Source of the DNA: a bacterium
Lineage (GTDB): Bacteria; Patescibacteriota; Patescibacteriia; SBBB01
NCBI GenBank assembly: GCA_005239895.1
Contig: SBBB01000025.1
Span: 98,170-162,169, forward strand
Direction of reading: 5' to 3'
DNA length: 64,000 nt
This document shows positions 21,949 to 22,388 of this stretch, piece after piece. The translations under genes were made by a program, and so were the position numbers. Below the pieces are notes generated by a model. The model was given only the letters and a program-made list of their open reading frames with translations. It was not told where the DNA came from and searched no databases. Each line of letters opens with the position of its first letter. The first letter of the stretch is position 1.

Positions 21949-22117
21949 AATTTTGCTTCTTTAATAACTACGCAAAATTAAGATGACGATGAAGATGAAG
22001 AAGCTAGATATTAGATGATATATTGCAAAACAAAATTTTCCCTCATCTTCACCCTCATCCTTTAAAATACTAATTACTTACACTAATTATAAAAAATAAT
22101 AATTCTTAAAAAAAATC

Positions 22118-22167
22118 AATGTTTGGGAGTTGAACTCCCAAACATTGATTACTCCCAAACATTGATT
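22118..22167. repeat. Hairpin-B variant CAATGTTTGGGAGTTGAACTCCCAAACATTG plus a partial duplication ACTCCCAAACATTGATT
   Basis: Outer stem conserved. The inner stem GGGAG/CTCCC co-varies relative to GGTGG/CCGCC in other copies. Confidence 0.5.
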
Positions 22168-22214
22168 AAATTAAAAAGTTTAGTTTTCAATGCATTTTGA
22201 TAGATAAAAAATAA

Positions 22215-22281
22215 AATGTTAGAAGCCTATTTCTAACATTTTAGTAGGCTCTATGTTTAGTACTCCGAATACTAAACAGTA
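22215..22281. repeat. Two further palindromic hairpins (AAAATGTTAGAA-GCCTAT-TTCTAACATTTT; TGTTTAGTA-CTCCGAA-TACTAAACA)
   Basis: Perfect 12-bp and 9-bp arms, related in sequence to the AATGTT(T)AG hairpin family. Confidence 0.45.
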
Positions 22282-22373
22282 GTAGCCTTTTCTCGTAAAA
22301 CTTTATACTGCTCTTCAGTTAAAGACTTTTTCCACTCCTCCTCACTTTTTAAAAATATTTTTTCGCTATCCAT
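22272..22373 (-). pseudogene. msrB: msrB (peptide methionine sulfoxide reductase B) N-terminal remnant, truncated after 33 codons
   Basis: Minus-strand ORF [33 protein letters not shown] matches the conserved MsrB N-terminus (EEWKK.[14 protein letters not shown]). The stop lies inside the hairpin at 22255-22281 and no continuation exists in any frame. Confidence 0.55.
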
Positions 22374-22388
22374 ACGCAGATTATTTTT

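Follow-up and report, generated by a model that had tools for sequence, protein, structure and literature searches.

The question raised by this locus is how a bacterium with a reduced-looking genome came to carry only the first codons of msrB, and whether the palindromic hairpins at the broken end of the gene had a part in the loss. The window (the whole stretch of DNA that was analysed, 64 kb out of a contig of at least 194.5 kb) has a G+C content of 32.7% and carries a housekeeping set typical for a reduced genome (priA, ruvB, def, fmt, ftsA, ybeY, gatA-like, L10/L12, smpB and tmRNA). The nearest relative of its RuvB among the GTDB species genomes is that of a Candidatus Kuenenbacteria MAG (67% identity), which marks the organism as CPR/Patescibacteria-like, and the proteins of the window are singletons at 90% identity in a collection of 15 billion proteins. 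Rfam identifies tmRNA and tRNAs only in the window. Five non-coding stretches of 550 to 750 nt (14308-14926, 31825-32532, 41048-41600, 47127-47880 and 48157-48840) are unusually long for a compact genome and are empty in Rfam at gathering thresholds. The msrB stub is the last member of a minus-strand transcription unit (FG-GAP gene, 141-aa gene, stub), and the features around it are the following.

21862..21948, plus strand: tRNA-Leu(TAG), convergent with the msrB stub
21949..22113: AT-rich spacer that separates the hairpin cluster from tRNA-Leu
22114..22150, minus strand: hairpin C, family member with 18-bp perfect arms
22151..22167: 17-nt exact tandem duplicate of the C arm (ACTCCCAAACATTGATT twice), of the slippage type
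22212..22243: hairpin B, 13-bp perfect arms and a 6-nt loop
22253..22279: hairpin A, member of the 27-nt family, ATGTTTAG TACTCCGAATA CTAAACAG
22272..22373, minus strand: msrB 5' stub, a 33-aa ORF made of 31 MsrB-homologous codons, 2 junction codons and TAG
22389..22814, minus strand: 141-aa membrane protein of no known family, upstream of the stub and co-oriented with it

The stop codon of the 141-aa gene is 15 nt ahead of the stub ATG, and the distance from tRNA-Leu to the stub start codon is 425 nt, approximately the length of a full msrB. No frame of the spacer gives an MsrB signal. Within it lies an imperfect 17-nt inverted repeat (21982-21998 / 22043-22059; GATGA/TCATC-rich, with a 44-nt loop), which has no further copy in the window.

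The 33-aa ORF is almost certainly a remnant of msrB. Its six PDB matches are MsrB without exception, and the alignments fall at the very beginning of the domain. A phmmer search of 1.84 billion representatives returned, besides the peptide itself, five matches (E 1.5e-4 to 6e-4), all of them MsrB N-termini and the best of them 72% identical. In NCBIfam the sole match is TIGR00357 MsrB (E=0.0015; peptide residues 9-31 against profile positions 2-24 of 134), with a score of 18.5 bits against a cutoff of 113.05 bits, and Pfam returned no match for the peptide. Among 4429 six-frame fragments of the window, an HMM of 68 MsrB sequences built from 80 metagenomic msrB loci detects the stub at E=1.9e-6 (profile positions 1-22) and finds no other MsrB segment with E<1. 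The homology is detectable over 22281-22349, and identity to the 80 metagenomic loci is 58-74% over 23-31 residues. The sequence-only reading had seen the conserved MsrB N-terminus in this ORF; PDB, NCBIfam, phmmer and the 68-sequence HMM all point to the same identity, and the E values of the HMM and of phmmer speak against a chance match. The stub retains its native start codon, as the alignment of some MsrBs from residue 1 shows. From that start it shares the N-terminal helix motif of the MsrB/SelR family (TIGR00357, PF01641) at 60-74% identity to many MsrBs, but it has neither the CxxC zinc motifs nor the catalytic Cys region (RYC[IV]NS). It is a fragment and not an enzyme: with both CxxC motifs and the catalytic region absent, reductase activity is impossible for the stub. 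The protein collection already contains the ORF, NCBI-sourced and without a name, and this public 33-aa CDS should rather be annotated as an msrB fragment or pseudogene.

In 30 of the 30 best alignments to metagenomic MsrBs the homology stops at the T of the conserved GT(E), which is residue 31, and this end is no more than about 2 nt away from the edge of hairpin A. By our own rough estimate, the chance of such a coincidence is about 1e-3 given 8 elements in 64 kb. The in-frame TAG (22272-22274) is inside the right arm of hairpin A, as had been proposed when the ORF was said to end in a hairpin after 33 codons. Approximately 100 msrB codons (about 300 nt) are absent, and the interval from the stop codon to tRNA-Leu measures 323 nt, of which 166 nt is the hairpin cluster. 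Since these codons are missing, insertions alone are insufficient, and the present state calls for a deletion or rearrangement that has one of its ends at element A.

The further statement that no downstream frame continues MsrB agrees with an HMM survey and an in-frame profile test, neither of which found a continuation. The idea that hairpin A and the in-frame sequence downstream of it are degraded msrB was based on the alignment of one msrB DNA (L160) on to 22254, on the likeness of 'YSEY' to 'FSGEY' and on an apparent C...LF...TKF...W co-linearity. It was rejected, as this sequence gives no reportable MsrB HMM score and falls below shuffles and intergenic controls. GKILFCNISSNI, which lies in another frame, was considered as the C-terminal RYCINS motif and is without HMM support. 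Stop recoding or read-through was discarded in view of in-frame TAG, TAA, TAG, TAG and TAG within 20 codons of the stub, and a tRNA-targeted island with att repeats was set aside because the 3' end of tRNA-Leu has no duplicate in the window.

The arms of hairpin A (22254-22265 and 22267-22278) contain one mismatch. Its flanks, TAGTAGGCTCT (22243-22253) and TAGTAGCCTTT (22280-22290), form a 9/11 direct repeat that also lengthens the stem. The meaning of this repeat is ambiguous, as it may be a target duplication or, equally, an extension of the stem; a duplication is not what Y1 transposition would predict. Among the 27-nt copies, A is the only one with a flanking direct repeat and the only one with GTAG in both flanks; its inner 11 nt are unique within the window. 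The two hairpins previously placed beyond A (22215-22246 and 22118-22148) are real, with coordinates that were a few bases off (22212-22243 and 22114-22150). Hairpin B is a diverged family relative (ATGTTAG...CTAACAT) in which each arm is one T short. Hairpin C is 90.6% identical to the copy at 2365-2396 and is followed on the minus strand by TTTTTT at 22108-22113. The two successive ACTCCCAAACATTGATT sequences at 22134-22167 give hairpin C two alternative right arms. The exact tandem duplication of the arm indicates that slippage operates at this locus.

The predicted fold of the 211-nt transcript end has an energy of -65.2 kcal/mol (z = -8.3 relative to shuffles), and a consensus scan calls hairpin C a terminator on the strand of the upstream unit. 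Like a Rho-independent terminator, hairpin C combines a stem of 17-18 bp, 6 of them G-C pairs, with a T-run on the same strand as the upstream operon, whereas A, B and five other family copies have no T-run. Hairpin C is the only family copy in which a G+C-containing stem is followed by a T-run. The family stems share conserved sequence, unlike those of independent terminators. Hairpin C and its T-run are thus predicted to be a canonical intrinsic-terminator-like site for the upstream operon, and the cluster is more than debris. The same sequence is present in a Logan assembly (SRR6943130; contig L042, seen in 2 samples), which matches 21971-25448 at 100% identity. As this second assembly is independent, an assembler-specific artefact is unlikely. 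The ends of this contig (21971 and 25448) are outside known repeat copies.

Hairpins A and C belong to a family of 27-nt palindromes of the form ATGTTTRG-N11-CYAAACAT. The arm motif ATGTTTRG occurs 23 times in the window against 8.1 expected (a count attained in 0 of 100 shuffles), and its matches form inverted pairs with a constant 19-nt offset, which gives a 27-nt unit with 8+11+8 geometry. Seven units of this geometry are found in the window, with starts at 2368, 7680, 8642, 21769, 22119 (C), 22253 (A) and 25863. Element A and the copy at 2368 share the arm ATGTTTAG. Three copies are identical, two of them at 7680-7706 and 8642-8668 and the third close to the msrB stub.

21769..21795: copy ATGTTTGGTGGTTCGACCGCCAAACAT, between ruvB and tRNA-Leu

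The flanks of these three 27-mers are unrelated, which indicates that the unit was copied as such. Within the family, 92.9% of stem cells are paired and 5 stem pairs are changed on both sides, values that are well above shuffled and slid controls; the compensatory changes fall in the inner stem. All six family loci are non-coding in a window that is about 85% coding (0.15^6, or about 1e-5), and most copies sit shortly after the end of a gene. JGI metagenome contigs do not contain the exact 27-mer, and the arm motif is absent from 782 kb of fetched loci (the genome's own Logan contigs left out). The degenerate pattern has 72 single matches in viral contigs, one of which has a paired inner stem, and this is chance level. 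A Logan contig (L041) ends at 7704, inside the copy 7680-7706, so that the 27-mers fragment short-read assemblies of this genome.

Judged by these features, ATGTTTRG-N11-CYAAACAT is a dispersed REP-like family. REPs are short imperfect palindromes that are multi-copy and extragenic and are often found 3' of genes (PMC3116915; PMC3337134). The 27-nt family resembles REP/BIME and REPIN-RAYT systems in its palindromes, multiple copies, extragenic location and subfamilies within one genome (PMC3116915; PMC3337134), and also resembles REP/BIME in that its members could act as terminators or attenuators when A/T runs flank them. REPs are dispersed palindromes of about 20-40 nt, and here seven copies and one diverged copy are present in 64 kb; REPs are mainly extragenic, as is the 27-nt family at six of six loci. 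The family differs from REPs in that it is without the GTAG/GT[AG]G head, its arms beginning instead with (A)ATGTTTRG. REPINs are inverted doublets, whereas the 27-nt units are near-perfect palindromes that occur as singlets or in a tandem cluster. As in REPIN-RAYT systems, there is a Y1 (IS200-like) transposase gene with hairpins at its flanks, located in this window, but a cognate RAYT is flanked by its own REPs while this gene is flanked by a different hairpin family. The host also differs from those of REP/RAYT systems, being a CPR-like bacterium with 33% GC. MITEs (50-500 nt, with TIRs and target-site duplications) are a poor match, as the unit measures 27-29 nt and differs in its flanks from copy to copy. 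Rickettsia palindromic elements and Neisseria Correia elements are small palindromic repeats in or beside genes that alter gene ends and can supply terminators. They are 100-150 nt long, and Rickettsia palindromic elements insert in frame and the gene stays functional. The 27-nt element is much unlike these elements in size, and the rest of msrB is gone.

The Y1 transposase gene and the second hairpin family (ACTTGGAAG-TTTCG-CTTCCAAGT) that flanks it are arranged in the window as follows.

33099..33731, minus strand: Y1 (IS200-like), RAYT-like transposase ORF (Pfam Y1_Tnp, 35.2 bits against a cutoff of 23)
33065-33099: second-family copy that abuts the stop codon of the Y1 gene and contains GTAG
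33520-33544: second-family copy inside the Y1 reading frame, encoding ...KLGSETSKL...
33770-33792: degenerate second-family copy upstream of the Y1 gene
15875-15899: second-family copy next to tRNA-Thr

The sole NCBIfam match of the ORF is 'REP-associated tyrosine transposase' (NF047646; 26.8 bits against a cutoff of 80), and an HUH-like NHFHF is visible in its translation. Palindrome-processing machinery exists in this genome, but without a tie to the msrB-associated family.

A third family consists of MITE-like units of 170-215 nt (2282-2451, 28140-28329 and 40102-40316) and solo ends (36197-36225 and 7657-7670). Its terminal inverted repeats, TGTCATTCCCGCGAAGGCGGGAATCCAGG, are each a small hairpin themselves. 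The GTCATTCCNGCG motif of this family has 10 occurrences (0.25 expected), and its translations (VIPAKAGIQ, SFPRRRESR and LRGNDK) resemble spurious 'hypothetical proteins' of many genomes. The 27-nt copy at 2368 is in the middle of MITE-like copy 1, at a point where two sibling copies carry 60-85 more nt, and the 27-nt copy at 7680-7706 lies 8 nt past a truncated 14-nt MITE-like terminal repeat (7657-7670). Thus, two 27-nt copies (2368-2394 and 7680-7706) occupy sites with missing third-family sequence.

A comparison with the orthologous locus in relatives, which the sequence-only reading had named as a check, was made, and none of the routes led to a syntenic relative. For the 141-aa neighbour, the GTDB species genomes contain no relative and a set of 5.8 billion proteins contains five homologues (at most 53% identity); none of the three that were looked up, all on short contigs, has msrB beside it. 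The Kuenenbacteria MAG with the best RuvB relative shows no synteny, and the 80 metagenomic msrB loci share none of the neighbouring genes of the window or the tRNA. In Abiotrophia / Aerococcaceae loci (L009 and L014-L017), an intact msrB precedes ruvB by about 700 nt in the same orientation. The msrB-ruvB order shared with those Firmicutes is probably a coincidence, given the phylogenetic distance.

The history towards which these data lean ties the truncation of msrB to the palindromic element, and we hold it as somewhat probable. A copy of the palindrome would have landed in msrB just after the GT codons (after codon 31), and the 3' three-quarters of the gene would then have been lost through a deletion with one end at the element. 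This loss may have come about by Y1/RAYT-type processing or excision between hairpin copies, by recombination between copies, or by slippage stimulated by the palindrome. The outcome would be a tandem cluster of 3.5 copies which now forms the 3' end of the upstream operon, where hairpin C and its T-run would terminate transcription and hairpins A and B may serve as 3' stem-loops of the kind that REPs provide elsewhere. The identity of the stub, the break at residue 31, the geometry of the family, the copy statistics and the missing MITE-like sequence at two copies are consistent with this history, as are the local slippage, the RAYT-like Y1 transposase in the window and the identical second assembly. 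The hairpins of the Y1 transposase are of a different family, and a single protein gene is affected in 64 kb; both points count against it. Beyond the coincidence of the break with the element, we infer the steps; as no orthologous locus with an intact msrB was found, the order of insertion before deletion is inferred as well. The proposal that successive hairpin insertions destroyed msrB is therefore right as to the remnant, the break at hairpin A and the copied nature of the hairpins, and has to be amended by the deletion.

In the chief alternative to this history, an unrelated deletion removed the 3' part of msrB, and the palindromes settled there afterwards or pre-existed as terminators. 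That all family copies are non-coding and mostly just downstream of gene ends suits such an order, as do the terminator character of hairpin C and the inability of insertion alone to account for the absent codons. The homology would then end within about 2 nt of element A by an accident with a chance of roughly 1e-3, and two other copies also abut truncated repeat sequence, so that this order of events is unlikely though well worth bearing in mind. The stub could instead be a partial duplicate or rearrangement product, with an intact msrB or its 3' part elsewhere, split or copied through recombination between palindromes. Repeats able to mediate inversion or duplication are present, and the window covers only part of the contig. 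The six frames of the window hold no second MsrB-like segment, and we regard this explanation as quite improbable.

Two further explanations do away with the biological link between hairpin and break. If the hairpins were ordinary independent terminators and the stub an old pseudogene, there would be no repeat family; the position downstream of genes and the T-run of C are in keeping with this, while the three identical 27-mers, the constant 8+11+8 geometry, the excess of arms (23 against 8.1 expected) and the lack of a T-run in most copies make it very unlikely. An assembly chimera, in which the assembler joined the 5' end of msrB to a foreign locus at a short repeat, has a parallel in the Logan contig that breaks at 7704 in the identical 27-mer 7680-7706. 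At the msrB stub, the second assembly (2 samples) is exact over 21971-25448 and spans the junction and all three hairpins, and the inner 11 nt of element A have no second copy in the window. A chimera is accordingly the least credible of these explanations, with hardly any probability left to it.

The truncation of a gene at small palindromic repeats is a known and ordinary form of decay, found here in an unusual lineage. The lineage and this particular 27-nt family appear to be undescribed in the literature. The description of the locus as a direct read-out of mutagenic activity and of ongoing gene loss goes too far, as it rests on one gene and no other intact gene in the window is disrupted by the family. 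As it stands, the finding is one pseudogene and a REP-like family and is not surprising in kind. It documents a datable-looking step of gene loss, that of an oxidative-damage repair gene in a reduced-genome bacterium, and reveals at least three short palindromic or MITE-like repeat families, along with a RAYT-like transposase, in a small CPR-like genome. A bolder reading, which we consider doubtful, is that the 27-nt palindromes are an undescribed and currently active mobile family in CPR/Patescibacteria that is processed in the Y1/RAYT manner and whose arrival is typically coupled to loss of adjacent DNA; the losses that might be cited for it, with the same doubt, are those of msrB, of the centre of the MITE-like copy and of the truncated MITE end. 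If true, the family would drive genome reduction and at the same time supply ready-made stops and terminators. Should hairpin copies prove linked to adjacent deletions genome-wide, the repeats would provide a concrete mechanism for genome streamlining in such lineages.
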